Made by a program: the position numbers and the translations under genes. Of a stretch of DNA of 64,000 nt, positions 1 through 50,758 are shown in pieces (within the stretch, counting starts at the first letter, position 1; every line of letters begins with the position of its first letter). The notes under the pieces are model-generated. The model saw nothing but the letters and a program-made list of their open reading frames with translations. It searched no databases and was not told the DNA's origin. The DNA lies in NCBI GenBank assembly GCA_965197905.1, contig CBDAOB010000005.1:800524-864523 (forward strand), read 5' to 3'. Origin of the DNA: Candidatus Latescibacterota bacterium (GTDB taxonomy: Bacteria; Latescibacterota; UBA2968; UBA8231).

Positions 1-491
1 CACAGGCGCCACGGGATGCGGTGGGCGCCCCCAAAGTAGAGGTCGCGGACCGCCTCAGGCTCGTTGAGTACAAGCCATTCCGCCAGAATGGGATGAATGA
101 GCTCTGCCCAGTTGTTTTCGGGGCTGGCATAAAAAATGACCCCGGTGACCATCACCACGACCTTCTGCGCCACGCCGCGGTTGGGAATGTGCGTGGCTAT
201 AGCCATCATGATGAATATGACCACGAGCTCGCCGGGCCGTAGATGCCATCCGCGGTTGAGCAAGGCGAGGAATACCTGCACCGTCAGGAGCAGGACGAAG
301 AACAGGATAAAGGCAGCGGGTGTGCACGAGCTGAGGCCGATGCGCGACCCGTGAATCACGTTTATCGTGTAGGGGAGGATCAAGGCAACGCTCAACGCCG
401 AGAACGAGCCGATCACCAGACTGCGGGACGAAACGGCCCACCGATCGGTAGGATGCGACGAACCGCTCGTTTCGCTTTGGCGGGCGTTCAA
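1..491 (-). CDS. Polytopic membrane protein, paralogue A of the 4-copy uncharacterised family (N-terminal part only; the gene runs off the window start)
   Basis: Absent from the ORF track because it has no stop inside the window. The minus frame from TTG 489-491 reads MNARQSETSGSSHPTDRWAVSSRSLVIGSFSALSVALILPYTINVIHGSRIGLSSCTPAAFILFF...FYASPENNWAELIHPILAEWLVL. This is colinear with the N-termini of the 654-aa and 656-aa proteins at 33195-35159 and 44307-46277. The listed ORF 55-549(-) is the off-frame shadow. There is no in-frame ATG, so the start codon is uncertain. Confidence 0.8.
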   Translation of the reverse strand, partial: MNARQSETSGSSHPTDRWAVSSRSLVIGSFSALSVALILPYTINVIHGSRIGLSSCTPAAFILFFVLLLTVQVFLALLNRGWHLRPGELVVIFIMMAIATHIPNRGVAQKVVVMVTGVIFYASPENNWAELIHPILAEWLVLNEPEAVRDLYFGGAHRIPWRL

Positions 492-713
492 GGAGGCGCC
501 TTGTTGGCAAGTACCGAACCCTTTGGTCCGGAGGCGCGCTTCGTTGCATCTTGAGCCATCGCCCTACCCTTTTTTTCCGTTATTCGCCCAAAAAGCAGGC
601 CGGATTGGAGTTGCGGTGAGAGAATGTGATATTGGGGTAGGCTCTTGGTCAAGGAGGGCTCTTACCAGCAGATTATCTGTTGCGATGGACCTTGAAGCGC
701 CATCGATGGCGGA

Positions 714-2507
714 GTGTCTAATCCAACGACACAGTCGAAGGTGTCCGATATGAAGGGTCACTACAGTGCAGCTTATCAGCGCATCGAAGAGCTGATAGCC
801 TCGGAGAGATGCGCGATTCTCGACGGCGGCGTCACCACGGAGCTGCAGCACGTCGGACCGAAAGAACACCGCGTCAGCGACAAGGGTCTCTGGGGCACCG
901 GGGTGCTCTACCGCGAACCGTATGCTGCCCTCGAGGTGCATAAACGCTACGTCGCTGCCGGATGCGATATCATCTCGACCATTACCTGGGCGATTATGGA
1001 CGCCCAGGAGATGGAGACGCAACGCATGGTGGAACATTCCGAACTACGCCATTGGATGGACGTAGCGCGACTGGGGATCATGCTGGCACGCCAGGCGGTG
1101 GACGAAGGGGGGAGAAGTGGGGAGTGTGCGGTGGGTTTCAGTCTCAACGGCGACATCGTCGATCCACAGCGTCTGCACAGAATTCAGCTTCTGGCGCGGG
1201 TGTTTAAGGAGGATCCGCCGGATTTGATCCTGCTTGAGACGATGTCGCTGGTCCGCGAAGATCTGACCGCGCCGGCTGTGGAAATCATGTTGGAAACAGG
1301 TCTGCCCGTGTGGCTCAGTTTTCGCCGCTGCCGGCACGGGGTGTGCGGGATCCATGGCCAACACTGGGGCGGGCCGGAAGGAGACCTGTTCGGGCGCCAG
1401 GCAAGGCAATTCGAAGAAATGGGGGTCGGCGCTCTGTTGATCAACTGCCTGCCAATAGACCATGTGCCAGGAATGATATCCTGGCTGCGTGATTTTACGG
1501 AGATGCCCCTTGGAGCATACCCCAATCTTGGGCGCTATCTGGATCCGGGGTGGAAGTTCGACGACGAGGTGGGCCCGGAGGAGTATGCAAACCTGGCGTT
1601 GCAGTGGCGCGGGGAGGGCGCCCAGATCGTGGGTGGATGCTGCGGCGTGACCCCCGAACATATGGCTGTCGTGGGCACCAGGCTCGCCTCGACCAAACCG
1701 GGAAACCGAAACATCGCTGCTGCCCATCCTCTCGCCGGTCCTGCGGCCGCTTCCCAACATCTCGAATCGCCGCCGCTCACGCTCGAACCCTGGATCGATG
1801 AAAAGAGCAGGGTGCTGTACCCGCTCCCCCTTCCTGAGATCGTTTGTGACCCAGGAGTTTTTCCACCAACCCAGGGCAGTTTCCTAATGTGGAAGTACCT
1901 GTGGCAATCTGGAGCAACCACAGGCAAACGGTGTTTGGACGTCGGTTGCGGAACTGGAATCCTCAGTGTCCAATTGGCCTTGAACGGTGCCCAACACGTA
2001 GATGCGATTGACATTCAACCTCAAGCCGTCGCCAATATGCTGACAAACGCCTTTCGCAACGGCGTGGCCGAACGCATCAGTGGCAAGGTGGCCGATCTCT
2101 ACTCCTACATTCCGGAGGAGCGCTACGAGGTTGTCGTGGCGAGTCTTTACCAGATGCCGGTGGATCCCATGGGGGAAACGACCAGCCACCGGCCGGTGGA
2201 TTTTTGGGGTCGAAATCTGCTGGACCACCTGATATCGCTCCTGCCGGATATGCTGGAGGAGGACGGGGTGGCGTATGTGATGCAGATTTCAGTGTTGGGC
2301 CAACTGCGAACCGTTGAGTTATTGGAGCGCAGCGGATTCGGGTGCAAGGTGATCGATTTCAGCCTGTTTCACTTCGGACCCGTGTTCCAGGAAAACATCG
2401 AACAGATTCGGCGCGTCGAGGAACTTTCAGATGCGTATCACCTGAGTTTCGGGGAAGATGAGGTGATGGTTATGTACTTGCTCGAAATCAGAGGTCGCAA
2501 GAATTAG
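714..2507 (+). CDS. Fusion protein: homocysteine S-methyltransferase domain plus class I SAM-dependent methyltransferase domain
   Basis: 597-aa ORF starting at GTG 714 (alternative ATG 750). The N-terminal half has ILDGGVTTELQ, LLINCLP and VGGCCGVTPEHM, the Cys pattern of the Zn/Hcy-binding methyltransferase fold. The C-terminal half has CLDVGCGTGILSVQLALNGAQHVDAIDI (SAM motif I) in a small-methyltransferase layout, with SLYQMP where HemK-type enzymes have NPPY. Confidence 0.8.
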   Translation: MSNPTTQSKVSDMKGHYSAAYQRIEELIASERCAILDGGVTTELQHVGPKEHRVSDKGLWGTGVLYREPYAALEVHKRYVAAGCDIISTITWAIMDAQEMETQRMVEHSELRHWMDVARLGIMLARQAVDEGGRSGECAVGFSLNGDIVDPQRLHRIQLLARVFKEDPPDLILLETMSLVREDLTAPAVEIMLETGLPVWLSFRRCRHGVCGIHGQHWGGPEGDLFGRQARQFEEMGVGALLINCLPIDHVPGMISWLRDFTEMPLGAYPNLGRYLDPGWKFDDEVGPEEYANLALQWRGEGAQIVGGCCGVTPEHMAVVGTRLASTKPGNRNIAAAHPLAGPAAASQHLESPPLTLEPWIDEKSRVLYPLPLPEIVCDPGVFPPTQGSFLMWKYLWQSGATTGKRCLDVGCGTGILSVQLALNGAQHVDAIDIQPQAVANMLTNAFRNGVAERISGKVADLYSYIPEERYEVVVASLYQMPVDPMGETTSHRPVDFWGRNLLDHLISLLPDMLEEDGVAYVMQISVLGQLRTVELLERSGFGCKVIDFSLFHFGPVFQENIEQIRRVEELSDAYHLSFGEDEVMVMYLLEIRGRKN

Positions 2508-2687
2508 CCCAGACTCTATTTGCCGAGATCTTGTCTCGAACCAGGCGCTTACCCTATTTTTCGATGAGAACACGGAGGCTAGCGGAGTTCAATCTAAACC
2601 CCATGGGGAATCGGCTGAGGGGATTGCTTTCGCCATCTGACCGCGAGACCGGTCAGTCGCGCCCCGGATCCTAGAAAGGTGGTACAA

Positions 2688-3530
2688 ATGGAAAACGGAC
2701 ATCTACCGAGCACCAATGCCGACGGTGTGCCGATCGTTCCGATGACGGCGGCACAAAAATATCTTTTCGACTTGAAGGGGTGGATCTGCTTGCCGGCCCT
2801 CCTGACTACTGAGGAGCTTGAGCCGATTCTGGAGCACCAGTGGAAGTTCCTCAAGGAACCGGAGTCATTACCTCCGGAAGAGAGAAACGCTGTCGGCGGT
2901 CCGTCACAGATCCTCCTGGATCATCCCGTGATTGTGGGCATGCTCAATGAGGTTCTCTCCTACCAGCCCTTGGCCGACGAGAACTGCTACGGTTTTCGCT
3001 TCGAGCGTACGCGCACCGACCGCCGCACGTGCGATCGCGACTACTTCGAAGCCCACGGGGGCGCGGGTTATTTCAACTTCTGTGGCAACTCACACCTCTA
3101 TCAGATGCTGCCCAACAAGATCCACGCAGGCCTGACCAGAGTCGTCTGGGAGCTGAACGAAGTGCGGTCCGGCGACGGTACCCATCTGATCTCCGGCAGC
3201 CACAAGACCGCCTATGAGCGCGCGGACGAGATCTGCGGACGAGACAGCGATCTGTGGGAGACCTACGCCTGTCCACCGGGGTCGGTCATGATCTTCACCG
3301 AGGCGATCTGCCACACAGGGGTGAGGTGGGAAAATCAGGAGTGGGACCGCCTCAGTCTTTTTCACCTTTACAACACGGTCAACTCGCGCTGGGGTGCGCA
3401 CTCGGTTCCCCCGGAGGTAATCGCAACCATGCCGGAAAAGCGCCAGAGTCTCTTCCGCCCCGTCTACGTCGCCCGTGGCCCCGGGAATCGGGACAACCTG
3501 AAGTACGATGAGGCGACCTACGGCGTCTGA
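2688..3530 (+). CDS. PhyH-like Fe(II)/2OG oxygenase with an atypical H-x-G metal motif
   Basis: ATG 2688 lies 5 nt after AAAGGTGG; the ORF track starts at GTG 2679. PhyH layout: KGWICLPALLTTEELE near the N-terminus, SGDGTHLISGSHK (the PGSH-like strand) and the distal TEAICHTG. At the position where paralogues carry WH-x-D, this protein has EAHGGAG (His codon 3054-3056). Confidence 0.7.
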   Translation: MENGHLPSTNADGVPIVPMTAAQKYLFDLKGWICLPALLTTEELEPILEHQWKFLKEPESLPPEERNAVGGPSQILLDHPVIVGMLNEVLSYQPLADENCYGFRFERTRTDRRTCDRDYFEAHGGAGYFNFCGNSHLYQMLPNKIHAGLTRVVWELNEVRSGDGTHLISGSHKTAYERADEICGRDSDLWETYACPPGSVMIFTEAICHTGVRWENQEWDRLSLFHLYNTVNSRWGAHSVPPEVIATMPEKRQSLFRPVYVARGPGNRDNLKYDEATYGV

Positions 3531-4948
3531 TGCACCGGGAGCCAGGGGGTATTGTGGTTCCACTCCTCCAGGCGGCGGCGTGATGCCTCGGCCAGGTCGG
3601 ACTGCTGTGCGCTCCGGGCCAGGTTGTTCTGCTCGTACGGATCGGCGCGTAGATCGAAGAAGCAATAGCGATCATCGGCGATGGTCTGCCGGTCTTCGTC
3701 AAGCTGCACGCCGTAGAGGTGAGTCGGCGTGCGCAAACCGATCCACCATGTTTTACTCTTCTGTGCTCTGTCGGTCTCGATGAACGCCGCGTCGTCTTCG
3801 AGCACGTCACAGCTTCCGGTGATTATCGGTGCCAGGTTCCTTCCCTGCGCGCTTGGGGGCACCTCCCCGCCACACACTTCCAGCAACGTGGGCATCACGT
3901 CGATCATCTGGGCGACCTGGCCACTGTTTACCCGCGGCGCCCAGCGTCCCGGAGCGTGGAAGATCAAAGGGATGCGGATGGCCTCCTCGATGAGTTGGCT
4001 CTTGTTGAACAGGTGGTGGCTGCCCAGGTTGTCGCCGTGATCGGCTAGAAACACCACAATGGTGTCGTCGGCCAGTCCATGTCTCTGGAGGGCGGCTAAG
4101 AGCCGGCCCATCATGTCGTCGACCCAGGTGGTCAGACCATAGTAGAGAGCAGTCAGGTGCCGCAGGTCGAACCCTGCGGGCGGAGTGGTCGTGTGCGGCA
4201 GTTTCTCCTGGTAGTAGAGAAAGTCCCAGCAATAGATCTTGAACCAGTGCTCGTCGTAGGCCAGCTCGCCGTCCACATACACATTGGGTCTGAGGGGCAC
4301 TTCGTCGGGAGCGTAGATATTGAGGTAGTGTGCGGGCGCGTCCATCAGCGGCATGTGGGGTGGCGATATGCTGTAGAACAGGAAGAATGGTCGCTCCGTG
4401 CGCGCGCCCAGGTAGCTATCCACCCGCTCCGCCTCGAACTCCACGCTGAAGCCCTCCACTACCTCGCCCATGCCCGTGTTCTCGATGAAGGTCTGGCCCG
4501 TGTGGCGGTGGTGAACCCGCGGGAACAGGCTGTAGTCGAAACCGAGCAGGTGCGGTGCTGGCTGGATGTGCCACTTGCCGATCAGCGCGGTATCGTACCC
4601 CAGGTTCCTGAACTGCTCCGGCAGGGTGGGATCTACGAGCTGGTTCCGTTCCTGGAAGGGATACTCGTCCCGGAGGGGATCCGCGGGTGCTGCGTCCTTT
4701 CGGGTGCCATGGCGCGGGCTGCCCATACAGGTGCGGCTGTACTGACCGGAAATCAGGCACGAACGCGCCGGCGTACACACCGGATTGTTGGTGACGGCGT
4801 GCTCGAAACGCACGCCCTCCTGTGCCAGGTGGTCGAGATTCGGCGTGCGGATGACCGGATTGCCGTAGCAACCCACCTCAAAGGCGCGCAGCTGATCGCA
4901 CATGCAGACGACGACATTGGGTCTGTTGCTCACTGCATACCTCCGCAC
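3518..4948 (-). CDS. Cys-type (formylglycine) sulfatase, no signal peptide
   Basis: 476 aa. NVVVCMCDQLR...PVCTPARSCLISGQY contains the C-x-P-x-R sulfatase signature. The N-terminus MRRYAVSNRPNVVV runs straight into the catalytic core. It overlaps the convergent gene 2688-3530 by 13 nt and the upstream lipoyl-protein gene by 19 nt. Confidence 0.9.
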   Translation of the reverse strand: MRRYAVSNRPNVVVCMCDQLRAFEVGCYGNPVIRTPNLDHLAQEGVRFEHAVTNNPVCTPARSCLISGQYSRTCMGSPRHGTRKDAAPADPLRDEYPFQERNQLVDPTLPEQFRNLGYDTALIGKWHIQPAPHLLGFDYSLFPRVHHRHTGQTFIENTGMGEVVEGFSVEFEAERVDSYLGARTERPFFLFYSISPPHMPLMDAPAHYLNIYAPDEVPLRPNVYVDGELAYDEHWFKIYCWDFLYYQEKLPHTTTPPAGFDLRHLTALYYGLTTWVDDMMGRLLAALQRHGLADDTIVVFLADHGDNLGSHHLFNKSQLIEEAIRIPLIFHAPGRWAPRVNSGQVAQMIDVMPTLLEVCGGEVPPSAQGRNLAPIITGSCDVLEDDAAFIETDRAQKSKTWWIGLRTPTHLYGVQLDEDRQTIADDRYCFFDLRADPYEQNNLARSAQQSDLAEASRRRLEEWNHNTPWLPVHQTP

Positions 4949-5442
4949 GCAGCGCGCACCTCGTCTTCGGTGATTCTGCGGGCACCGCTCGAATCGCAGA
5001 GCTTCCGCCAGTCGACTCCGAGCTCCTCCGCCAGTCGGCGTGCCCGGGGACTGATTCTGTATCTTGATGTTTTAGGCCGCGCGGTAGCCGCTGGCTGCGG
5101 ATGTTCCTGTTCCGTCGCAGGCTCGACCCCAGGGACTGAGATCGGTTTCGGGTCAGGCGCGGAACTCGTCGCCGGCACCGCTGCGGGCGGCGACTCGCCT
5201 TCGGCCAGCAGATAGCCGAGAAGCGTACCGACGGCAACGGTCGCGCCCTCACCGGGAACACCGTCGGGGATGTGCAGAATGCCTTCGTCGAGCGATTCGA
5301 CCTGACTGAGGGCCTTGTCGCTCTCGACCGTAAAGAGAATCTCTCCCAGTCCGACGCGGTCGCCGTGTTTGACGAGCCACTCCACGAGGGTGCCCTCTTC
5401 CATGGTCCAGCCGAGACGGGGCATCGCGATTTCCACAGCCAT
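4930..5442 (-). CDS. Lipoyl-domain plus E3/E1-binding (PSBD) protein; E2 lacking the acyltransferase catalytic domain
   Basis: 170 aa. MAVEIAMPRLGWTMEEGTLVEW...TVESDKALSQVES is a lipoyl-lysine motif. It is followed by an Ala/Pro linker and ISPRARRLAEELGVDWRKL..SGARRITEDEV (PSBD). The ORF stops right after this domain. Confidence 0.85.
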   Translation of the reverse strand: MAVEIAMPRLGWTMEEGTLVEWLVKHGDRVGLGEILFTVESDKALSQVESLDEGILHIPDGVPGEGATVAVGTLLGYLLAEGESPPAAVPATSSAPDPKPISVPGVEPATEQEHPQPAATARPKTSRYRISPRARRLAEELGVDWRKLCDSSGARRITEDEVRAACGGMQ

Positions 5443-5456
5443 GAAGATTGCCCGCG

Positions 5457-6437
5457 CTATTCCTCAGCGAGGTGGCGGACGGCCTGCGCGATCTGTTCGG
5501 CCGACGGTACCACAGCACTCTCGAGTGGTGGGCTGTAGGGTGTCGGGGTGTGTACGCCGTTCAGCCGGCGCACCGGCGCATCCAGAGCGTCGAACCCCGT
5601 CTCCATCACCCGGGCAGCGATCTCGGAACCGATGCCGCATGGACCGAAAGCCTCGTCGACGACGAGCAATCGACCCGTCTTGTGCAGCGATGTCAGTATG
5701 GTATCCATGTCCAGTGGCGCGAGACACCTGGGATCGACGACCTCGACAGAGATGCCCTCATCGGCTAGCTGGTCGCATACGCCCAGCGTCTTCGGCACCA
5801 TGGGACCAAGGGCGACAACGGTTAGGTCAGCGCCTTCGCGACTGATCGCAGCCTGACCCAGCGCGATCTCGTACGCCTCCTCCGGCACGTCGCCACGACT
5901 GTTCAGCAGCGACTTGTGCTCCAGGAAGAGGACCGGATCGTCGCAGCTCAGGGCGGTGGCCATGAGCCCCTTGGCATCGTATGGGGTGGCCGGCAGCACG
6001 ACGCGGAAGCCGGGGACGTTCACAAACAGCGGGTAATAGCTGCCCGAGTGGTGCGTAGCGGCACCGCCGCCGACCCCGATGCAGCCGCGCAGCACGACGG
6101 GCATCTTGAGTCTGCCGCTGGACATATACTGGATCTTGGCGATCTGGTTCACCAGTTCGCCGACGGAGTCCAGCACGAAGTCGATGAACATGAAGTCGAC
6201 GACCGGTCGGGTGCCCGTCATGGCGGCACCGGTGCAGATGCCGACGAAGCCGCGCTCGCAGATCGGCGTGTCTCGCAGACGTCTGGCTCCGTGGCGCTCA
6301 AACAGGCCCGTCGTCGTTTTGAAGTTGCCGCCGCGCACGCCGATGCCCTCACCGAGCACGAAAATCGTCGGATCACGCTCCATCGCCGCGGTGAGCGCTT
6401 CGCGGGCCGCCTCGGTATAGGTGATTTCTCTGGTCAT
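5457..6437 (-). CDS. 2-oxoacid (pyruvate/acetoin-type) dehydrogenase E1 beta subunit
   Basis: MTREITYTEAAREAL...FVLGEGIG..GG.FKTT.GL...RLRDTPICE is the transketolase-like pyrimidine-binding module. The preferred start is ATG 6437, which overlaps the E1 alpha stop in an ATGA. Confidence 0.9.
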   Translation of the reverse strand: MTREITYTEAAREALTAAMERDPTIFVLGEGIGVRGGNFKTTTGLFERHGARRLRDTPICERGFVGICTGAAMTGTRPVVDFMFIDFVLDSVGELVNQIAKIQYMSSGRLKMPVVLRGCIGVGGGAATHHSGSYYPLFVNVPGFRVVLPATPYDAKGLMATALSCDDPVLFLEHKSLLNSRGDVPEEAYEIALGQAAISREGADLTVVALGPMVPKTLGVCDQLADEGISVEVVDPRCLAPLDMDTILTSLHKTGRLLVVDEAFGPCGIGSEIAARVMETGFDALDAPVRRLNGVHTPTPYSPPLESAVVPSAEQIAQAVRHLAEE

Positions 6438-7375
6438 TGGGAATCGTCGCTGTAGATGTGAGCGCTCACGGATTCCGGCGATGGCCATGGGCTGTCGGTG
6501 GCGAACTGCACGGCCTCGGCAATCTCCTCCGCCACCTCCCGATCGACGGCCTGAAGGGTGTCGGCGCCGACGCCTTCGTCTGCGAGTCTGCGCGCCAGGG
6601 CCTCAATGGGATCCCTGGCCTTCCAGGCGTCGATCTCTTCCTGGGTTCGGTAACCGCCATCGCCCATGCCCTCCGCGTGAGGGCGGGTGCGATAGGTGCG
6701 GCACTCGAGGAGGGTGGGCCCATCACCTCCGCGGGCGCGCGCCGCAGCTTCACCGGCCGCTTCGAATACCGCCAGAGCATCGTTGCCGTCCACTGCAACG
6801 GCCTCGATCCCGTAACCGCGCGCTCGAGCGGCGACGTCGGTGTTGCGGGCGGCGTAGTTGAAAGCCACTTCAGTGGCATACATGTTGTTCTCGCACACAA
6901 ACAGCACGGGCAATTCCCAGATGGCAGCCAGATTGAGTCCCTCGTGAAATGCGCCGTTGCCGACGCCGCCGTCACCGAAAAAAGCGACCCCGACGCGATC
7001 GCTTTCCAGCAGCTGAAACGAGTAGCCGGCGCCGGTGGCCTGCAGGATGCTGGGACCGACGATACCGCTCGTGCCCATCATGCCGATCTCGGGCGCGAAG
7101 AGGTGCATGCTGCCGCCGCGGCCAGCGGAACAGCCGGTTGCCCGCCCGAAGAGCTCGGCAATGAGCTGTCGCGGAGGAAGGCCTTTGGCCAGAGCGTGAC
7201 CGTGACCGCGATGCGTGCTGAACACGGCGTCGTCATCACGCAGATGGGCACAGACCCCGGCGGCGACGGCCTCCTGTCCGACGTAGGTGTGACAGGCGCC
7301 GGTGATCAAGCCCGCCTGATAGGACCGTGCCAGCTGCTCTTCACAGCGCCGGATCCGCACCATGGTGCGATACAT
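6434..7375 (-). CDS. 2-oxoacid dehydrogenase E1 alpha subunit (TPP-binding)
   Basis: 313 aa. Motifs: YRTMVRIRRCEE, HTYVGQEAVAAG, GRGGSMH, and FFGDGGVGNGAFHEGLNLAAIWELPVLFVCENNMYA (TPP motif). The equally long antisense ORF 6437-7408(+) has no motifs. Confidence 0.9.
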   Translation of the reverse strand: MYRTMVRIRRCEEQLARSYQAGLITGACHTYVGQEAVAAGVCAHLRDDDAVFSTHRGHGHALAKGLPPRQLIAELFGRATGCSAGRGGSMHLFAPEIGMMGTSGIVGPSILQATGAGYSFQLLESDRVGVAFFGDGGVGNGAFHEGLNLAAIWELPVLFVCENNMYATEVAFNYAARNTDVAARARGYGIEAVAVDGNDALAVFEAAGEAAARARGGDGPTLLECRTYRTRPHAEGMGDGGYRTQEEIDAWKARDPIEALARRLADEGVGADTLQAVDREVAEEIAEAVQFATDSPWPSPESVSAHIYSDDSQ

Positions 7376-7414
7376 GTCGAGGAGTGCATCTGTTGGATAT
7401 GGTCATGAGTGCAA

Positions 7415-8230
7415 TCAGCCTGTGATGCCCGGGCCACCGGGATAGGAAGCGCCGGCATTCATGGCGAGGTTGCCGCCGTCCACGGGCAGCAGTACACCCG
7501 TCACCCAGGCGGAGGCATCGGAGGCCAGGAAGATGGCCACACCCCTGACGTCGTCGGGTTGACCGAGCCTGCCGGTTTGGAATGCCCCGCAGCCACTGCT
7601 CTTCCATACGGGGTTCACGCTTCATGCGCTCCTGCACGTCGCGGCGTGCGCGTCAACGCCATCCTGCTCGCTCAGGTGGTGAACCCGCTTCTTCGACCAT
7701 TCGGTGCTGAGCTCGCGCGTCATCTGGGCAACAGATCCCATCGCCATGCTGTAAGCCGTGTGACCGCGTCCGAGAGCGGTGAGACTGGCGAGCGAGCCGA
7801 TGTTGATAATACTTCCGCGCCCGGCGGCAAGCATGCGTTTGCCGGCCTCCTGGCAGCAGAGGAAGCGTCCGATCGCCAGACCCTGAAACACCTGGAGCAA
7901 CTCCTCGGTCGATATCTCCTCCGGCGGTTTGAGAATGGCCTCGCCGGCGACGTTGGCGCAGATGTCCAGGCGGCCGAACTCGTTGTCGATGTGCTCGAAC
8001 ATCGGGCGGATCTGGTCCGGGTCCGAAACGTCGCAGCGCAGCGGCATTGCCCGGCGACCCAGCGCCTCGACCACGGCGGCGGTCTGTTGCGCCCCATCCT
8101 CGTTCAGGTCGGCGAGCACGAGATCGGCACCGACTTCGGCAAAGGCGAGAGACATGGCTCGACCGACGCCACGCGCCGCCCCCGAAACCAGAGCTACGCG
8201 GCCAGTTAGATCGAACAGCGCGTGTGACAT
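7415..8230 (-). pseudogene. Short-chain dehydrogenase/reductase interrupted by a single in-frame TGA (probable pseudogene)
   Basis: ORFs 7622-8230 and 7415-7618 are in the same frame, separated only by TGA (7622-7624) and one Ser codon. Together they give 272 codons. The N-terminus has TGRVALVSGAARGVG (Rossmann fold) and the C-terminus has GRLGQPDDVRGVAIFLASDASAWVTGVLLPVDGG. The catalytic YxxxK reads YSMAM (Lys to Met, codon 7739-7741). The IRVN..PG segment is degenerate (RVHHLSEQDG). Confidence 0.6.
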
Positions 8231-13470: not shown

Positions 13471-13655
13471 TTCTCGCTCCTGGTTGTTCGATAACTCCCC
13501 GTTTCGCCGTTTGAATACCGAAACGATGATGTTGTTGGGGGTTCCAGAATGTTGTCCTGGTCGATGTGGTAAGAGTCGTCTGTGGCTTCTGGCTGGCGAT
13601 TCTGTACCGGTTCATTACTCTCGACAGATTGGTACCTAACCAAAAGGACCGCAAA

Positions 13656-26133: not shown

Positions 26134-26346
26134 CCGCCAGTTTCGTGGAAAAGCCACTGAATCCGTCTGAGTTTTTTGTGCCAAAGCCAATTGTCTCGGG
26201 TATTTGTACCCCAACCGACTCGAGGCAGACATCCACGACCTTTTCGACAGAGAGTGAAATTCCAACAGAATAACGCTAACGCTTGAGATCAGAGAAAGGA
26301 AAGATCGTCGAGGTAACCGGCGTGGGCGGCAATTGCCTGGGTTTGG

Positions 26347-26375
26347 TTGCATGGCACACCCCTGATGAGTAGAAT
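26347..26375 (+). promoter_or_regulatory. Candidate sigma-70-type promoter for the 26396 operon
   Basis: TTGCAT (26347-52), a 17-nt spacer, then TAGAAT (26370-75), 20 nt upstream of ATG 26396 with GAGAGGAG in between. This is a pattern match only. Confidence 0.3.
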
Positions 26376-26395
26376 AGTTCGGTCGAGAGGAGCCC

Positions 26396-31170: not shown

Positions 31171-31288
31171 GAGTTGGGTCTCCTCCGGAAACACACGGCG
31201 TCGTGAGCCCAGACAACATGAGTCCTGCACTGGGTCTTGGTGACGCCGTGAATCGCGAATAGCGGATAAGTCTCATTGTGGTCGTTTT

Positions 31289-33093: not shown

Positions 33094-33194
33094 GCGCTTT
33101 CCTCCTCTTTGACAAGCTGCCGTCGTAGTCACCGAAGTGACGGATGGCTAAAATCGGCCCCGGCACGCTACCTACGGGATCTGAACCCCGTGGA

Positions 33195-36772: not shown

Positions 36773-36810
36773 GTCAGCTGTTCCCAGGTCGGCGAACGAC
36801 GAAATACCGC

Positions 36811-39441: not shown

Positions 39442-39497
39442 ATCAGCAACCTCCGCGTCCATCCGTTGCGGCCCGTGGTCACATGAACCTTGTAGTG

Positions 39498-40631: not shown

Positions 40632-40687
40632 AGGATGTTCTCCACACTCGGTCTGCCATTCTGTTTCCGCAGAACATATGATCCTCT

Positions 40688-42390: not shown

Positions 42391-43260
42391 ATGTCAGATA
42401 TATCTTCTTCGTCCCAACGAGTTAGCAGCCCACGCATAGACGATCGCGATTGGAGCCGACTCACCCTAGGGCAGCAGATTCAACAGCTCGAGGTCGAAGG
42501 CTACGTCGTTCTGCCCGATCTACTCTCGGCCGATCACATTGCGCGCCTCAAGGAACAAACCGTGCAGTTCGAAACCACTCACGTGGATTACAGCGTGCAC
42601 CAGCGCGGTCGGCAAGATATCCAGTTTGCCGGCGGGGGGGTTACCGAGCTTGTTGCGTTTCCCCCCATGATCGAGTTCTTGAAAGCAGTCTGCGGCGATG
42701 AGATCGTTTTGATGTCCTACGATTACTCTCGCTCCGAGCCGGGGCACCCGGGCATCAGTCTGCACTGCGACGGCCAGCCGTGGGGGTCGCGAATTTTCGG
42801 TGCTGAATACACCTGCCCCAAACTGATCCGCGCCCTCTACTACCTGGACGATTTGATACCCGAGGTATCGCCCTTCCGCGTGGTGCCGCGGTCGCATCTG
42901 AGCTACCACAACGAAGCCAATCCGTACCTGCGCTACGAGGAGCACCCCGAGGAAGTCATGGTGACCTCCAGGGCCGGCTCTGCAGTGCTGTTCGACAATT
43001 ATGTATTCCACGGCAACTATCCCAACGTGGGCAGCTACCCGCGGGAGGCGCTTCAGCTCTCCTACCGGCCAACCTGGGCAGGTCCGGCAGGCGATGTCGA
43101 ACCGTGGGATCCGGACCATGTGGCCAACCTCGCTCCGACCGTGCGCCAGTTCATGGGCGATCGCAGTGCTCGCCTTTGGATCTACGAGGGCGGCAACAAA
43201 CCGGCTGATATGGCCAGCGAGGCTCCGGGCATGAACCCCAGTCGCTGGGATCGCGATTAG
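42391..43260 (+). CDS. PhyH-family Fe(II)/2OG dioxygenase
   Basis: 289 aa. Motifs EGYVVLPDLLSADHI, LHCDGQP (H-x-D), FRVVPRSH and VFHGNYPNVGSYPR. Confidence 0.85.
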   Translation: MSDISSSSQRVSSPRIDDRDWSRLTLGQQIQQLEVEGYVVLPDLLSADHIARLKEQTVQFETTHVDYSVHQRGRQDIQFAGGGVTELVAFPPMIEFLKAVCGDEIVLMSYDYSRSEPGHPGISLHCDGQPWGSRIFGAEYTCPKLIRALYYLDDLIPEVSPFRVVPRSHLSYHNEANPYLRYEEHPEEVMVTSRAGSAVLFDNYVFHGNYPNVGSYPREALQLSYRPTWAGPAGDVEPWDPDHVANLAPTVRQFMGDRSARLWIYEGGNKPADMASEAPGMNPSRWDRD

Positions 43261-43284: not shown

Positions 43285-44214
43285 TCAGGCGCGAAGCGGC
43301 TGTCGTAGTCTCCTCAGCCTCCGCGTCCCGCGCACCGTAAAGCGCCAGCGGGGTCCATATTTCTTCGCCAGGTTGACGTTCTCCCTTATGTCGGCCAGGG
43401 TCTCCAGCGTCTCAACCACCGGAACCTCGTCGCGGCCGGCGGTGCGCTTCAGGAACTCCCGGGTCTTGCCGTTGAGAACCCCGTAAAACCCGCGAACATC
43501 CGCATCTGTGTGGTCCCGCCAAAACATGGCCGGTATGAACGAATCGTCGCCGAGGAATTCGCGGTGGCGGTGGCCATAGTAGATCTGCACCGTCTTGCGC
43601 TCGGATTGCGTGGGACGCACGGTCGCCGTGTGCAAGCGGGTGATGTTGAAGATCACCGCCGTACCCGCTTTGCCATACAGATCGTGGACGCCTCCGCGCT
43701 CCAGCTGTGCCTCCGTGTCCAGCAATTCTTCATCGAACGCCTGCGGTGAGATGGAGAAGGTGTGGGTCGTCTCGTCCGCGTCTTCCAGAAAGAGCATCAT
43801 CTGCACATAGCCGATCCGCAGCGGATGTTCCGGCCACATGCTGTCCTCTCGCCCGTCCCGATGCCACCGCCGCCCCACCTGTCCTTCCCACGTCCTCATC
43901 CCAGGAATCGGCTCGCCCGCGTAGGGTCCCATGCGCCTGAGGCAGATCTCGGCGAAGCAGACATCGCCGCCCATCAGGGCACGAAGGGGTCCCATCGCCT
44001 TCGGATGCCGAATGATCTCGTCGAACTCGGGTGCCGTCAGGAGCGCATCACAATGCTGGGTCTGCCAGATGCCGTTGTCATTCCAGAAACGGCTGAATTC
44101 CCGACGATTGCGATCGAAAAGATCGACAAATCGGGCAAGCTCCTCGTCACTCAGAATCTTTCCCAGCGATACGTAACCGTGATCTCGGAAGAAATCGTGA
44201 TCTGCCTGCTTCAC
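43285..44214 (-). CDS. PhyH-family Fe(II)/2OG dioxygenase with basic C-terminal tail (paralogue of 32164-33093)
   Basis: GTG 44214 follows GGAGG at 7 nt. Contains MKQADHDFFRDHGYVSLGK, RRWHRDG and NLAKKYGPRWRFTVRGTRRLR. Confidence 0.85.
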   Translation of the reverse strand: MKQADHDFFRDHGYVSLGKILSDEELARFVDLFDRNRREFSRFWNDNGIWQTQHCDALLTAPEFDEIIRHPKAMGPLRALMGGDVCFAEICLRRMGPYAGEPIPGMRTWEGQVGRRWHRDGREDSMWPEHPLRIGYVQMMLFLEDADETTHTFSISPQAFDEELLDTEAQLERGGVHDLYGKAGTAVIFNITRLHTATVRPTQSERKTVQIYYGHRHREFLGDDSFIPAMFWRDHTDADVRGFYGVLNGKTREFLKRTAGRDEVPVVETLETLADIRENVNLAKKYGPRWRFTVRGTRRLRRLRQPLRA

Positions 44215-44306: not shown

Positions 44307-46277
44307 TCAATACACCCGGATATGATTGTACTTCACTCCCGTGAAGGAATCCACCAGCAGCCAGAATCCCGCTGCCACGAACTGCCCCAGAATGATCCCC
44401 ATGAAAAACGGCTTTGTTCGTTCGTAGAGGCTGGCCCCTCCGTAGTTCAGCACCATAACCTTGATCAACCACGCGCACATTATGGACATCCACAAGTGGT
44501 TCATCACCCAGGAAGCGCTGACGGCAAATCCTATCGGGTGGAACGGCCACCAGGCGAAAACGTGGCGCGCAAGCATGAGCCCGCCCATCAAGGCACCCCC
44601 TACCCCGGTCCATATCCACCCTTCCACGTTCGGCCCGGTGAGGTTCGCCATACCGGCTTCCGCAAACCGCGACGGCCACATGGCAAAACCCTGGTAGTAC
44701 TTGGAGTTGAGGTGCAAACCTCCATACTTGTAGGCGAGGTAGATCTGAAACCACGTCGCCGCTAATATGGCGATCACCACGGCCGCGGCCACGGCGAGAA
44801 AGACTCCCCTCCGGTTGCGGGTTATCTCCGAACCCATCCGCAGCGCGTTCGCCATCGGCGCGGTTACGAACATGAGAAACCCACCGACCCAGACCAGGGT
44901 GTAGCCAAGCGCCACCACCCCCTTGATGCCCAGTGACGTTGAGCCGATCCCCGACATCAGGAAGGTCGCGGGCGCCATGGCCGGGGCGACGGTAGGCAAA
45001 CCAGTCTCGGCAACCACCCGCGCCAAGCCGATCATAAGCACGAGCGCGGCGAAGATGAAGAGCAGCGCCGTCCAGGCCGGCATCCCCGACTGCCACAGCC
45101 AGATGAAAATGAAGCCCGACCCTCCCAGAAAGCAGAGCACCGCGGTCCGGTACGACATGATCTCCTGCGAGTCATCCACTGGAGTCTTGCTGTTCCAGGC
45201 CTTGCGCAAAACCTCGGCCAGGTGGGGCCTTGCCGTCCACAGGCCGAAGACCACCAGAACGATCAGGGCACCGATCATCTGGTGCCCAATGGCGGCCCCA
45301 CCCACCGGTCCCGAGGCATCCCCCGGACCCAGGTGCTGGCTCAGGCCAATGCCAAAAATCGCAAACGCCCCTCCTTGAAGCACCCGAACGAGATAGAAGA
45401 ACCACATGCTGAAAGCGACGGTGGTGTTGATGAAATAGGCGAAGCCGAGCATCAGAAAATTGATGCGGAACATCAACTCGATCTGGTCGCGGAAGATCAT
45501 GGTCTCCACGACCCCCATCACGGCGGGAATAAAGGAGAAATAGTTGTGTAGTATGTTGGTGCTGTTGATCAGAAACGAAAAGAGGAATCCGCCCCACATC
45601 ACCGGATTCCTGAAGAAGGGTCTGATGATCGCATCCGTCCGGCCGTTGTCCTCCAACATGGCCAGGGGCACCTGGGCTAGCGGAAACGCCAGGCGCTCGT
45701 GCTCCACCCATTGCCGGCGCAGGATGACCAGCGCGCTGAAGAGGGTCAGATAATAAGCGATAAAGAAGAGAAACCAGCGCAGCAGGACCGGCATCCACAA
45801 CTCCCAGGGAATTCGATCGACGCCCCCGCCGTAATACAGATCGCGGACGGCTTGTTGATCGCCCAGCACGAGCCATTCCGCCAGTATGGGTTGGATGAGC
45901 TCGCCCCAGTTGTTCTCCGGGGTGGTGTAGAAGGTGACGCCCGTGACCATGGAAACCACCTTCTGGGCTATGCCGCGATTGGGAACGACCGTGGCCATCG
46001 CCATCATGATGAAGATGACCGCCAGCTCCCCGGGACGCAGCAGCCAGTCGCGCTTGAGCAGTCCGAGGACGATCTGCAGGGTCAGAATGAGTGTGAAGAA
46101 GAGAATGAACGCAGCGGGTGTGCAGGAGCTCAGGCCGATGCGCGACCCGTGGATCACGTTGATGGTGTAAGGCAGGATCAGCGCTATACTCAGGGCCGAG
46201 AGCGAACCGATCAACAAGCTGCGCGGCGTCAGCGCCCACCGATCCGACGGGAGTAGGTCGACGCGGCTCGTCGTCAT
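44307..46277 (-). CDS. Polytopic membrane protein, paralogue C of the uncharacterised family
   Basis: 656 aa, colinear with paralogue B along its whole length, with the same motifs. The N-terminus is nearly identical to edge copy A (PYTINVIHGSRIGLSSCTPAAFILFF). Confidence 0.9.
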   Translation of the reverse strand: MTTSRVDLLPSDRWALTPRSLLIGSLSALSIALILPYTINVIHGSRIGLSSCTPAAFILFFTLILTLQIVLGLLKRDWLLRPGELAVIFIMMAMATVVPNRGIAQKVVSMVTGVTFYTTPENNWGELIQPILAEWLVLGDQQAVRDLYYGGGVDRIPWELWMPVLLRWFLFFIAYYLTLFSALVILRRQWVEHERLAFPLAQVPLAMLEDNGRTDAIIRPFFRNPVMWGGFLFSFLINSTNILHNYFSFIPAVMGVVETMIFRDQIELMFRINFLMLGFAYFINTTVAFSMWFFYLVRVLQGGAFAIFGIGLSQHLGPGDASGPVGGAAIGHQMIGALIVLVVFGLWTARPHLAEVLRKAWNSKTPVDDSQEIMSYRTAVLCFLGGSGFIFIWLWQSGMPAWTALLFIFAALVLMIGLARVVAETGLPTVAPAMAPATFLMSGIGSTSLGIKGVVALGYTLVWVGGFLMFVTAPMANALRMGSEITRNRRGVFLAVAAAVVIAILAATWFQIYLAYKYGGLHLNSKYYQGFAMWPSRFAEAGMANLTGPNVEGWIWTGVGGALMGGLMLARHVFAWWPFHPIGFAVSASWVMNHLWMSIMCAWLIKVMVLNYGGASLYERTKPFFMGIILGQFVAAGFWLLVDSFTGVKYNHIRVY

Positions 46278-46292
46278 CGAATGTTCGAGGGA

Positions 46293-47180
46293 CTACCTTG
46301 GAACGGGGATCCTCGACCCGAATCCACTGTCGACGAGCTTGAGCCCGGTGGCGTCCTCAGAGGTATCGCAGATTTCCCTGAGGCTGTCTATCCACTGTTG
46401 GCGTTTCGGGTTCTTCTCGGGGTTGCTCAACCACTCCTCGGCGACCCCGTCCTGCCAGGGCATCTCGGGATGCGGTTCGGGATGCAGGTATCTCGGAGCG
46501 ATGTTGCGCATGGTTTCCAGTTCCTGAGGTGTCTCAGGGTAGTTGAAGAAACTCACACAATTCATCTGCCGGTCGTTGCTTCCGCCGTAGGTTGCGTGCA
46601 TGATGCGCAGGTCGAATGCCACGACGTCGGAGGGCTCCATCTCGATCTTGCAGCACGGTATCCGGTCCAGCTGCTCGGTTGCTTTCTCGTGAAAATCGGG
46701 ATTCTTCCGGAACTGCTTGCCCAGCACGGGGTACTGGGCGAGCTGGGTCTGGTATGGGTCTTGATGGGAACCGGGTATGAATCTCAACGCGCCACTATTG
46801 GCATCCACCCGCTGCAAACCGAACTGGAATTTTATCCCTCCTCCGTAGACGTTCATGCAGCCGTCGTTGTAGTGCCACGGAGTATTGCCGACGTACCGAT
46901 AGGCATTGACCTCGAAACAGAGAGCTCTTTCACCGAAGAGCTGCTCGGCCGCCTCGTAGAAGCGCGGGTCTTCCGGGAGGCCTGCGTAGACGGGTGTCTC
47001 AGCGCTCAGCATCCTGAAGAATTGCATTTTCGTACCGTCGAATTTTGTCCACCTCGACGCTTTTTCTGCGGCGTAATCGAACTCTTTCCTGAGAGTATCC
47101 AACTCCTCTGGACGAAAAAATTCCCTGAGTACAACAAATCCAAAGGCTCTAAATTGTCTCTCTTGTTCCGAAGTCAACAT
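46293..47180 (-). CDS. PhyH-like Fe(II)/2OG oxygenase, variant metal motif (WHYND)
   Basis: 295 aa. Contains FGFVVLREFFRPEELDTL, TPWHYNDG, NSGALRFIPGSH and IMHATYGGSNDRQ. Its stop is 15 nt upstream of the start of membrane paralogue C. Confidence 0.75.
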   Translation of the reverse strand: MLTSEQERQFRAFGFVVLREFFRPEELDTLRKEFDYAAEKASRWTKFDGTKMQFFRMLSAETPVYAGLPEDPRFYEAAEQLFGERALCFEVNAYRYVGNTPWHYNDGCMNVYGGGIKFQFGLQRVDANSGALRFIPGSHQDPYQTQLAQYPVLGKQFRKNPDFHEKATEQLDRIPCCKIEMEPSDVVAFDLRIMHATYGGSNDRQMNCVSFFNYPETPQELETMRNIAPRYLHPEPHPEMPWQDGVAEEWLSNPEKNPKRQQWIDSLREICDTSEDATGLKLVDSGFGSRIPVPR

Positions 47181-47208
47181 GATTTACTCCTGTCATCGCT
47201 GTGGCTGT

Positions 47209-47502: not shown

Positions 47503-47543
47503 TTAGCTTCCCTCGCTTTTGCCCTCTACAATGCGTCTTACCA

Positions 47544-48488: not shown

Positions 48489-48614
48489 CCGGAATACCTG
48501 TGCCCGAACGCCTAGTTCTGTAGCTGCCACCAAACGGCCGCGCGGGTTCATTGGCTTGCGCCTCTTTCGGGTTCGAGGCGCCCAAGGCAAGTGACCGGCA
48601 CTGATGGTCGCAAT

Positions 48615-49010
48615 CTATCCGACACCCCTCGGTCCGGCCGCGGTGTGCCCTGCGGTGGGGAACCAGATCAGGTCGACCAAGACGGAAGAGGCAACCCCGA
48701 CTATGTAACCGACCCCCATGCCGTAGAAAAACGGCTTGCCTGCCACGTAGGCGGCGACCCCGCCATAGCGTAGGAGGGTGGCTTTGACGCCCCAGACCAC
48801 CGCCAGATTAATCCAGTAGAGATCCAGCCAGAATGATTCCTGAAAAGCGAGACCGACCGGGTGCAAGGAGAACCAGTGGTAGCGACTGCGCAGGTAGGTC
48901 ATGCCCGCCGCTTGTAGCCATCCGAAGAGAAATACCCCGATCTTCTGCCAGTCCATAACTGTGCGGTTCTGGAGCATGTAGACCAAGGGGTCGAAGAAAC
49001 GGGCGGTCAT
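48615..49010 (-). CDS. C-terminal piece of membrane-protein paralogue D (split gene)
   Basis: 131 aa. MTARFFDPL...WFSLHPVGLAF...LLRYGGVAAYVAGKPFFYGMGVGYIVG aligns to the last roughly 130 aa of paralogues B and C (TAARFVE...WWPFHPVGFAI...LNYGGPALYERTKPFFMGIILGQFV). Its ATG overlaps the stop of 49007-50758 (ATGA). Confidence 0.75.
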   Translation of the reverse strand: MTARFFDPLVYMLQNRTVMDWQKIGVFLFGWLQAAGMTYLRSRYHWFSLHPVGLAFQESFWLDLYWINLAVVWGVKATLLRYGGVAAYVAGKPFFYGMGVGYIVGVASSVLVDLIWFPTAGHTAAGPRGVG

Positions 49011-50758
49011 CCACCACTCGAAGCTGATACCGGTGCCTCCCCCCGGTAGGTAGTATCGACGCGGGCGGCAACGGTGACGACAAAGACGAGGGCGAAAACT
49101 CCAAGGGTTACAAGGGTAACCGCTAGTGGCTGATGTCGCAGTGAAAAAAAACGCAAGCAGTGGGTGAGAGCGGGCCAGGCGGGGATCAGATTACCGCCGA
49201 AGAAGCCGGGGCTGGTGAACAGGTGGAATCCGGCCAACCCGCGCGCCGTGATGGGGGCCGTGCCCAACAGGTCGACCACAAAAGGGGCGCCCTTGACGAA
49301 TGGACGGTACGGAGCGAGGTAGGCGAACCCGCAGGCGGCGACGAGTTTGGTCGTAACAAAAAAGGTCAGGGACATCAGCAGGAAAGATCCCAGTGCTAAT
49401 GCCAGACTCATGCCTAAACTCATTGCCCAGACGACCACGTAGACCGCGGAAAGCACAAGCCCCACCCAGGCGAACCGATAGCGTCGGCGGAGATGGGCAT
49501 CGTCCCGTACTCGAAAAGCCATGCGCCAGGTCTCTCGCAGGTGACCTCGCGCGATCCATATCGCCCACACGGCGATGAACATCAAAGCTCCATAGTTTTC
49601 CATGAAGAGCAGCCGTTCGCCGCCGATCTGCTGGCCTTCCGCGCCGAACGAGATCCCGGTGCGAGTCAGCATACCTGCCTTGAAGAGACTCATGATACGG
49701 AAAAGGATCAGGCTGCCGAGAGTGTCCATCGGGCAGAGATAGGTCACCGCCATCACCAGCGGCATGTAGCGAATGTTGATCCGGTAGATCCAATCGCTCA
49801 CCTCGAAGCGAAAGATCTCGGTATTGAAAGGGAGAATCATGGCCATGGTGAAATAGGTGGAGATGTTGTAGAGGATCGGCACAAAAACCAATCCGAAACC
49901 GATCCAGAACAGTTTCGTTCGGAACAGGTCGGGTAGGCGGCGGCGACCATCCATGCCGCGCAGCAGGTCTAATGGCAGCTGGGCCAGCGGGAAGGCGAGT
50001 TTCTCACGGTCCTCCCATTGGGTCTGGAAGAGAACGAACAGGCAGTACCCGAAGGCCACCATCGCCAGGGAAACACCCAGCCATTGCAAGGTTATCTCGA
50101 TCCATCCCTCCCAGGGCACCAGGGCGCCGTCCGGAAGTCCGAGCCAAAAGCTGTCCAACACACGTGCACTCGTAGGAGCGAGCACATGCCACGGCAGGTA
50201 GTCGAAGAAATGCTCGGCGTACATGTTCTCGGGAGAGGCGAAATGGGTGGGTGAGGCGACCATCAACGACCATCGGCCCAACCAGTGGGGGAGGGTGCCG
50301 ACAATCCAGAGCATGGAAAGGATGGTCAGCAGCTCTCCGGTCTTGAGGGTTTGGGAGGGCCAGATCCGCGAGAAGCCCACGTTCAGGAAGATCCAGAGGA
50401 CGAACGGCATTAGGGCGAGCAGCGGCAGCTGCGAGTGGACGAAGTGTCCCACCCCCGAGCGCTCCGAGACGTAGATGACATAGAGGATCACGCCCACCGT
50501 GGTGGCCAAGCCCAGGACCACGCCTCTCAAGGTGATCGATGGAGTTGCCGAGACGGTGTTGTGATCAGGGTCGGAAATGGGCAAACCGTTCGTCCGGGGA
50601 GGGCAGGTCGGATGGATCGGCAAGTCTATTACATGTTCGGCTGGATTACAAGCAAGGTGTGGCCAGGCGGCAAAATCCGGCTGTTGCCGCTCGTGTTGGC
50701 TGTCGACTGCCTCTGTCCGCTGGATACCTCGCCAGCCTGATCCGTACGGCTTGACCAC
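49007..50758 (-). CDS. N-terminal piece of membrane-protein paralogue D (divergent copy)
   Basis: 583-aa ORF. HFASPENMYAEHFFDYLPWHVL and WEDREKLAFPLAQLPLDLL match the family motifs. It ends where the paralogues continue. The true start is uncertain, since no internal ATG lies near the first TM span. Confidence 0.75.
   Translation of the reverse strand: MVKPYGSGWRGIQRTEAVDSQHERQQPDFAAWPHLACNPAEHVIDLPIHPTCPPRTNGLPISDPDHNTVSATPSITLRGVVLGLATTVGVILYVIYVSERSGVGHFVHSQLPLLALMPFVLWIFLNVGFSRIWPSQTLKTGELLTILSMLWIVGTLPHWLGRWSLMVASPTHFASPENMYAEHFFDYLPWHVLAPTSARVLDSFWLGLPDGALVPWEGWIEITLQWLGVSLAMVAFGYCLFVLFQTQWEDREKLAFPLAQLPLDLLRGMDGRRRLPDLFRTKLFWIGFGLVFVPILYNISTYFTMAMILPFNTEIFRFEVSDWIYRINIRYMPLVMAVTYLCPMDTLGSLILFRIMSLFKAGMLTRTGISFGAEGQQIGGERLLFMENYGALMFIAVWAIWIARGHLRETWRMAFRVRDDAHLRRRYRFAWVGLVLSAVYVVVWAMSLGMSLALALGSFLLMSLTFFVTTKLVAACGFAYLAPYRPFVKGAPFVVDLLGTAPITARGLAGFHLFTSPGFFGGNLIPAWPALTHCLRFFSLRHQPLAVTLVTLGVFALVFVVTVAARVDTTYRGEAPVSASSGG

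Follow-up and report, generated by a model that had tools for sequence, protein, structure and literature searches.

The present study analyzes four paralogous membrane proteins, here called copies A to D, encoded in a 64,000-nucleotide stretch of the genome of a Candidatus Latescibacterota bacterium (assembly GCA_965197905.1, contig CBDAOB010000005.1, positions 800,524 to 864,523), which is referred to throughout as the window. Exactly four copies were recovered, all on the minus strand, when profiles of the two subfamilies described below were run with hmmsearch against the six reading frames of the window, and this bears out the four paralogous membrane proteins proposed in an earlier note on the same DNA. 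Copy A (<1-491) is truncated by the window edge and is represented by its N-terminal 163 residues, which match Pfam DUF6785 (E = 2.8e-27, 95.9 bits). Copy B (33195-35159; 654 residues), a predicted transporter of the OPT/YSL fold, matches DUF6785 and DUF6784 with E-values of 1.5e-117 and 5.3e-32 (393.6 and 110.4 bits), and copy C (44307-46277; 656 residues) matches the same pair at 1.1e-114 and 2.6e-31 (384.1 and 108.2 bits). Copy D (48615-50584) is split into two open reading frames, 49007-50758 and, in another frame, 48615-49190; it matches DUF6785 at 220.1 bits, and its C-terminal reading frame matches the family profile.

All four copies are members of Pfam DUF6785 (PF20581) followed by DUF6784 (PF20580), far above the gathering scores of 25 and 26.4 bits respectively, and this two-domain order on a single chain is common to nearly all retrieved homologues. 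The earlier note had called the family unrecognised, which is not so, given matches to both Pfam entries at 1e-117 and 5e-32; the copies are full members that do not differ from the entries in any respect, and the entries themselves carry no function. The HMMER and Pfam check that had been suggested at that time was run and turned up no characterised transporter family, although the DUF6785 and DUF6784 entries already existed. The NCBIfam scan of the copies gave no match and a literature search on the names DUF6785, DUF6784, PF20581 and PF20580 found no paper in the library searched, and the family is therefore one that is catalogued in Pfam yet uncharacterised.

Copies A, B and C are mutually 72–76% identical in BLASTP (A-C 76%, A-B 72%, B-C 72%), whereas the identity of D to B and C is just 27%, and D is for that reason assigned, on sequence, to a separate and divergent subfamily. 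The profiles of the two subfamilies can nonetheless be aligned by hhalign over their whole length (probability 100%, E = 1e-93). Sequence motifs quoted in the earlier note were found with minor deviations; C reads TTPENNW and WPFHPIGFA, and the RIGLSSCTPAAF motif is absent from D. Ten charged or aromatic residues are invariant (E82, E119, N120, R185, R193, R348, H350, R375, K604 and D641). A Kyte-Doolittle scan gave 16–17 hydropathy peaks, partly overlapping, in B and C and 13 in P0121, a relative of the D type, so that the previous figure of at least 14 hydrophobic spans per copy was about right; the predicted models of both subfamilies contain about 20 helices.

The family is a large one: when 1.84 billion representatives were searched with its profile, 6,828 clusters (50% identity) matched at E ≤ 1e-3 and 2,263 at E ≤ 1e-30. 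The best 80 matches among species-representative genomes came nearly all from metagenome-assembled genomes of Latescibacterota and Gemmatimonadota, many of them marine or sponge-derived. Among the loci that were fetched, at least 11 copies came from one 7.3-Mb genome (OZ244561.1). Of 78 related loci, 23 held two or more copies within about 20 kb. As had been supposed, the presence of four copies in the 64-kb window is beyond chance, and such clustering is typical of the family.

The interruption of copy D reflects the loss of one base in a run of G at about 49039-49044, where six are present and seven are needed. P0121, which is 98% identical to D, is one intact chain of 656 residues that reads TTYRGGGTGISFEWWM across the split site, and its locus in a related assembly (L161) is fully syntenic with the D locus. 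Judged from P0121, the true start of D probably lies near 50584, at a TTG, and not at 50758. The split is due either to an error of assembly or to a pseudogene of very recent origin and is not a natural two-gene form. A natural pair with translational coupling through the ATGA stop/start overlap at 49007-49010 was considered and rejected, since the 98%-identical relative is a single reading frame and the difference is one homopolymer G; the ATGA overlap is a chance by-product of the run of six, and homopolymer errors of this kind are typical of long-read assembly.

Predicted fold and relation to OPT/YSL transporters

The AlphaFold2 model of copy B, built from a 49-sequence alignment, had a predicted local distance difference test score (pLDDT) of 83.5 and a predicted template-modelling score (pTM) of 0.86, and a model of the D subfamily, built from a separate alignment, reached 89.2 and 0.91. 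Compared by Foldseek with 350,542 PDB chains, the B model matched barley Yellow Stripe 1 (HvYS1, 7wst/7wsr) over its whole chain (E = 8.9e-8, probability 1.0, template-modelling (TM) scores 0.64/0.69), with all other PDB matches at E > 0.04 and TM ≤ 0.21. The D-type model likewise matched HvYS1 alone (E = 4.4e-8, probability 1.0, TM 0.58/0.62; the rest at E > 0.03 and TM ≤ 0.21), and the HvYS1 matches of both models together fall between 4e-8 and 1.5e-7. Two independent models thus predict the YS1-type fold, with a YS core and a scaffold domain, and the B model ends, as does YS1, in a short C-terminal beta element. We consider the assignment to the OPT/YSL fold well supported by these predictions. 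That fold is so far known only from OPT/YSL transporters, through HvYS1, which is of the proton-symport elevator type.

The AlphaFold and Foldseek comparison had itself been proposed in the earlier note, and in both subfamilies it singled out HvYS1. The view expressed there, that these proteins belong to no characterised family, therefore survives in part: they are polytopic, transporter-like and without a sequence family of known function, but the confident fold match ties them to OPT/YSL. The reported absence of nucleotide-binding, MFS and APC signatures was confirmed in Pfam, NCBIfam and Foldseek; no Pfam match to ABC, MFS or APC families was seen, and Foldseek matches to APC/LeuT-fold, MFS and ABC chains were all at E > 0.03 and TM ≤ 0.21.

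Several results count against kinship with OPT/YSL. The fold evidence consists of predicted models and not of solved structures. Not one of 49 members matched the OPT family PF03169 at E ≤ 10 in a Pfam scan, which returned only chance-level matches to unrelated small families, and the family profile run with HMMER against all PDB sequences found nothing at E ≤ 10. In hhalign, the family and a 22-sequence profile of plant YSL proteins were related with a probability of 0.6% (E = 0.1), in a comparison of limited sensitivity owing to the shallowness of the YSL profile (effective number of sequences about 2); that profile consisted of real database entries, retrieved with a YS1 query that served as a search hook. 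OPT proteins have about 16 transmembrane segments with internal repeats, and when the N-terminal and C-terminal halves were compared by hhalign, the inverted repeat that a YS core should have was unseen at the sequence level (probability 0.3%). Identity to YS1 is 11–14%, and neither the proton-site Asp nor the binding-site residues of YS1 could be mapped. The motif NPG was present in none of the 49 sequences of one set and in 2 of the 51 of the other, and K[ILVM]PPR in 0 of 100, NPG and KIPPR being given as conserved OPT motifs by Koh et al. 2002, as that work is cited in PMC3061005. Because such tests of membership fail at the sequence level, we do not file the family under OPT; judged from the models, it probably has the OPT/YSL fold and works like an OPT transporter.

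Set beside the OPT/YSL family (TC 2.A.67; PF03169; HvYS1, 7wst/7wsr), the proteins are alike in the predicted fold of the whole chain (TM 0.58–0.69), in size (about 650 residues), in their many helices, and in being encoded by stand-alone genes without an ATPase. In both families each half contains a helix, an extended loop with Gly-Leu and a second helix, the loop consensus being GLSSxTPAAF and EAGLPTxTP in DUF6785 and TGLVPTLNVSAAL and GAGLTDMNMAY in YSL, a likeness that was read by eye from consensus lines and carries no statistical test. They differ in that no sequence similarity is detected by HMMER, Pfam or hhalign, in the absence here of NPG and KIPPR, in that the present family comes from uncultured Latescibacterota and Gemmatimonadota with very many paralogues per genome, and in a gene context of carbohydrate and organosulfate catabolism as opposed to peptides and iron chelates. 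To our knowledge the OPT/YSL superfamily has one solved structure. If the fold holds, several thousand clusters would pass from a DUF to a testable class, that of OPT/YSL-type proton-coupled elevator transporters. According to a 2011 review, no prokaryotic OPT member had been biochemically characterised by then.

Gene neighbourhoods and PhyH dioxygenases

Nine genes with a Pfam PhyH match occur among the approximately 51 genes of the window (about 18%). A PhyH dioxygenase gene lies 62 bp downstream of copy B (32164-33132, minus strand; E = 1.1e-4; HxD...H triad present in the alignment), and two tandem fusions of PhyH and HEAT repeats lie upstream of it (35294-36847 and 36811-38256, minus strand; Pfam PhyH and HEAT_2). 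Copy C has one PhyH gene 92 bp downstream (43285-44214, minus strand; E = 4.2e-7) and another 15 bp upstream on the same strand (46293-47180, minus strand; E = 9.9e-15). Both copies are therefore flanked on either side by same-strand PhyH genes, at gaps of 15–134 bp; the other PhyH genes of the window are at 26396-27238, 42391-43260, 56748-57812 and 58100-58942. The two downstream genes, 32164-33132 and 43285-44214, are paralogues with 77% identity, and because the transporters are 72% identical, B and C with their downstream PhyH genes are read from these sequences as one module duplicated as a unit. Tandem PhyH-HEAT copies are 67% identical to each other, with an N-terminal PhyH domain and C-terminal repeats of the HEAT/PBS-lyase type, an arrangement kept in two of the related loci, L001 and L003.

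Beyond the window, the locus orthologous to C in L003 (OZ244235.1, a related Candidatus Latescibacterota metagenome-assembled genome whose E1-beta protein shares 97% identity with the one encoded in the window) keeps the same PhyH flanks, with a gap of 4 bp between the transporter and the upstream orthologue of 46293-47180. In L001 a PhyH-HEAT orthologue is directly upstream of the transporter. Co-directional PhyH operons were otherwise seen only in a distant marine locus, L062, with a 10-bp gap. According to the earlier note every copy shares an operon with PhyH genes or is divergent from them, and this is true of B and C only. Within the window the neighbours of A are a methyltransferase fusion and a protein without a Pfam match, and D lies between a spermidine-synthase-like gene and a TIM-barrel gene; neither copy has an adjacent Pfam PhyH gene.

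To place these flanks against a background, genes were called on 79 related loci and clustered at 60% identity, and the Pfam PhyH fraction was compared. PhyH made up 6 of 83 immediate neighbours of the transporter in the non-redundant set (7.2%), 7 of 120 genes lying beyond 5 kb in those loci (5.8%) and 8 of 120 genes in control loci (6.7%), and the comparisons gave Fisher p-values of 0.77–1.0. The controls were 29 loci from the phyla of the related loci, each chosen around an unrelated anchor gene; a single transporter gene occurred in their 507 kb. The PhyH fraction was also flat with gene rank from the transporter, as measured with a self-built PhyH profile that reproduces the Pfam counts. 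In the clade whose members share at least 70% identity with B and C, the PhyH flanks are retained by direct orthologues alone, and L004-L008 have genes other than PhyH as immediate neighbours. Enrichment of homologues beside PF05721 genes, a test that had been set beforehand, was not found across the 79 loci, and the claim that the family as a whole is wired to PhyH oxygenases is not upheld. PhyH accounts for about 6% of sampled genes of at least 150 residues in related and control loci, where it is the most abundant Pfam family. The apparent wiring is what chance would give in PhyH-crowded genomes, and a link beyond a lineage-specific operon is not supported. A caution follows for similar genomes, in that PhyH adjacency should not be taken for functional linkage when several percent of all genes are PhyH. 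PhyH density in control loci was 4.3% for these phyla against 1.8% for Chloroflexota and 0.8% for Planctomycetota/Verrucomicrobiota in a small sample confounded by phylogeny, and a looser, genome-level link between transporter and PhyH is still conceivable. A comparable genome-wide expansion, with PhyH at more than 1.9% of all genes, is described in Poribacteria (Kamke et al. 2014, PMC3909097). The resemblance lies in dense and diverse PhyH genes in uncultured, often sponge-associated or marine bacteria; here, in contrast, the density is higher, at about 6% of the sampled genes, the phyla are others, and some PhyH domains are fused to HEAT repeats or co-transcribed with a transporter.

A single obligate partner gene was sought among the immediate neighbours of the transporter, and none was found: 54 of 83 non-redundant neighbour clusters were singletons and the commonest Pfam family reached only 7%. 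The neighbours are varied catabolic genes, mostly of carbohydrate and sugar-acid metabolism, and the families near the transporter include sulfatase, type I phosphodiesterase, GFO_IDH_MocA, BNR, UxuA, MR_MLE, Pec_lyase, Lyase_8 (polysaccharide lyase 8), rhaM and GH172. Sulfatase homologues were present in 12–13 of the 79 loci, sigma-54 activators made up 2 of the 83 neighbour clusters, and in L162 genes for SBP_bac_5 and sarcosine oxidase lie near the transporter.

One neighbour association is better supported than that of PhyH. The window encodes a large secreted protein of an unnamed family (23143-26505, minus strand), possibly an outer-membrane beta-barrel, with homologues that cluster near DUF6785 genes. 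Thirty-two homologues were found in 22 of the 79 loci, all within five genes of the transporter gene, as against 0 of 325 genes in the 29 control loci (Fisher p = 1.6e-5 by gene and 7e-4 by locus, orthologous loci not being independent). They are about 900–1,080 residues long, with clear signal peptides, beta-strand-like C-termini and acidic repeats rich in D and N (for example L004:7024-9975, L010:5757-8978 and L080:2038-4749), and 3 of 18 members had a weak match to SlpA_C, an outer-membrane beta-barrel family. On these sequence features the family may be an outer-membrane partner of the transporter. Divergent from one transporter subclade, L162 has a gene (5043-7565) for a protein of about 840 residues with CarboxypepD_reg and DUF5686 domains. 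Genes of about 840 residues occupy a similar position upstream of the transporter in L041, L045, L046, L050 and L055, the annotation coming from L162 only. DUF5686 is presumably a family of outer-membrane barrels, in which case the L162 gene would be a second kind of large envelope protein.

Proposed role of the family and competing explanations

Our preferred explanation, which we hold to be probable, is that these proteins form a divergent OPT-fold family of secondary importers that has radiated into many catabolic islands. The DUF6785+DUF6784 chain would take the two-domain, core-plus-scaffold fold of HvYS1 and act in the inner membrane as a stand-alone elevator-type importer, coupled to ions and probably to protons, for which neither an ATPase nor a binding protein is apparently needed. 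Each of the many paralogues in a Latescibacterota or Gemmatimonadota genome would stand in a different catabolic island and probably have a substrate of its own. OPT-type carriers take bulky substrates, and here the substrates would probably be large organic solutes that are polar or carry a charge, for instance sugar derivatives or oligomers of an acidic or sulfated kind, to be processed after entry by cytoplasmic enzymes. Copies B and C would represent the recently duplicated module co-transcribed with iron- and 2-oxoglutarate-dependent dioxygenases, and D would face an operon of cytoplasmic sialidases resembling GH156. An import role is supported because the fold match is joined by neighbours that are mostly catabolic and lack signal peptides, and the import with cytoplasmic processing envisaged in the earlier note fits both. 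The analysis shows to which family the proteins belong, their predicted fold, how many copies there are, the order of the genes and the background rate of PhyH; that they transport, in which direction, with which ion and for which class of substrate is what we infer. An oligosaccharide-specific subcluster of prokaryotic OPT proteins had been suggested before from genome context (PMC3061005).

Two further observations tell against this explanation. Substrate and direction are deduced solely from a gene neighbourhood that is very varied, and in a Latescibacteria contig (L080, 5904-11992) genes for a PhyH protein, a binding protein of the sugar type and two ABC permeases, with no ATPase, form a tight same-strand array that ends in DUF6785; a separate importer is not obviously needed in that operon, and the ABC co-occurrence is unexplained.

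An alternative would be a dedicated import and oxidation system, in which the membrane protein hands its substrate to partner PhyH dioxygenases and the pairing defines the family. The close same-strand flanks of B and C, duplication of the transporter-PhyH pair as a unit, its retention in L001 and L003 with a similar 10-bp-gap pair in L062, the iron triad retained in the PhyH partners and the higher control-locus density of PhyH in transporter-rich phyla would all be expected of such a system, but they are set against PhyH fractions that are alike in neighbouring, distant and control genes without decay by rank, against the other neighbours of L004-L008 and of A and D, and against the precedent of Poribacteria, where PhyH expanded with no known link to a transporter (PMC3909097). 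As a property of the family this system is largely refuted, and we regard it as improbable. A conventional OPT function, namely uptake of oligopeptides, glutathione or metal-chelate (siderophore-like) complexes, could be argued from the sole structural relative, an Fe(III)-phytosiderophore transporter, from characterised members that carry peptides of 3–8 residues or iron chelates together with the many prokaryotic members predicted to be peptide transporters (PMC3061005), and from an M20 peptidase gene in the window and the SBP_bac_5 and sarcosine oxidase genes near the L162 copy. It is nevertheless very improbable in our judgement, as genes for peptidases, siderophore synthesis or iron regulation do not recur as neighbours, the recurrent themes being enzymes of carbohydrates and sugar acids, sulfatases and PhyH, and as the low identity to YS1 leaves its binding-site residues unmapped.

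It could also be that the proteins do not import at all and share only their architecture with transporters, as exporters or flippases, as enzymes embedded in the membrane, or as sensors resembling transporters. The literature search on the DUF names returned no experimental data for any member, sigma-54 activators are found among the neighbours, the L080 gene sits within an ABC importer operon, and the invariant set from E82 to D641 could serve catalysis as well as coupling. Such a role seems hardly probable given a whole-length match to a bona fide symporter with a fold not known from enzymes, no recurrence nearby of genes for biosynthesis or envelope assembly, and a radiation of paralogues in catabolic islands that is the pattern expected of nutrient importers. 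More ambitious than the OPT-fold importer explanation, and rather unlikely at present, is that the family is a deep, previously unlinked bacterial branch of OPT/YSL and forms the main inner-membrane route for bulky glycan-derived solutes (acidic or sulfated sugars or oligomers) in both phyla. Working with the large secreted proteins of the 23143-26505 type, possibly outer-membrane barrels, it would feed an unusually large set of cytoplasmic PhyH dioxygenases, sulfatases and sialidase-like enzymes.

A near parallel in organisation is the polysaccharide-utilisation island, which likewise brings together a possible outer-membrane barrel, an inner-membrane transporter, sulfatases, and sialidase-like and sugar-acid enzymes; the present loci differ in having no SusC/SusD pair or TonB-dependent receptor beside these copies, in enzymes that appear mostly cytoplasmic, and in a carrier of predicted OPT fold in place of MFS or ABC. 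More than 10 copies per genome in catabolic islands suggest a major route of nutrient uptake in these often marine or sponge-associated organisms, and the neighbouring genes are concrete candidates for substrate screens. Overall the proteins represent a divergent variant of a known transporter architecture and give access to a large uncharacterised family and to the nutrient uptake of uncultured phyla.

Other genes of the window

Downstream of B on the minus strand are a TIM-barrel gene of the UxuA-like/xylose-isomerase-like kind (31289-32167; Pfam UxuA, E = 1.3e-67) and a gene for a 686-residue protein (29170-31230) with no Pfam or PDB match; sequence searches of the PDB with the products of 29170-31230, 23143-26505 and 55153-56586 gave nothing useful. 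Divergent from D, a plus-strand operon (50577-55148) begins with a xylose-isomerase-like TIM barrel (Pfam AP_endonuc_2, E = 2.4e-20), which has 316 residues in the syntenic L161, and continues with two paralogous GH156-like exosialidases (51787-53424 and 53421-55148), without an evident signal peptide and without a Pfam match, the first of which matches the exosialidase 6rzd (phmmer E = 1.5e-10). Together with the BNR genes (13566-14771 and 19570-20691), a lyase of the DHDPS family (60408-61340) and an HpcH aldolase (59443-60291), the pair suggests, from sequence, a cytoplasmic catabolism of glycans containing sialic or other nonulosonic acids. A Cys-type sulfatase near A (3518-4948, minus strand; Pfam Sulfatase, E = 7.6e-49) also lacks a signal peptide. 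Most neighbouring enzymes of the window do so when their N-termini are judged by eye, and the statement that all neighbouring hydrolases lack one stands for most of them. No riboswitch that might name a ligand was found when the whole window was scanned with Rfam, and a scan for promoters and terminators between 29 and 48.7 kb gave counts at the level of shuffled sequence.

Divergent from A, the gene at 714-2507 (plus strand) encodes a fusion, of 597 residues, of a homocysteine S-methyltransferase and a class I S-adenosylmethionine-dependent methyltransferase. The adjoining gene at 2679-3530 (plus strand) encodes 283 residues with no Pfam match; it has a PhyH-like N-terminus and phmmer finds PhyH-like reading frames with it, the HxD iron motif being absent in the alignment, and on these grounds its product may be a degenerate relative of PhyH. 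Proteins of the DUF1501 family usually carry a twin-arginine signal, and the member encoded here starts without one. It belongs to a trio of DUF1800, DUF1501 and NHL-repeat genes (38359-42100, minus strand) that lies upstream of the PhyH-HEAT genes and copy B on the same strand and is kept in the syntenic L161.

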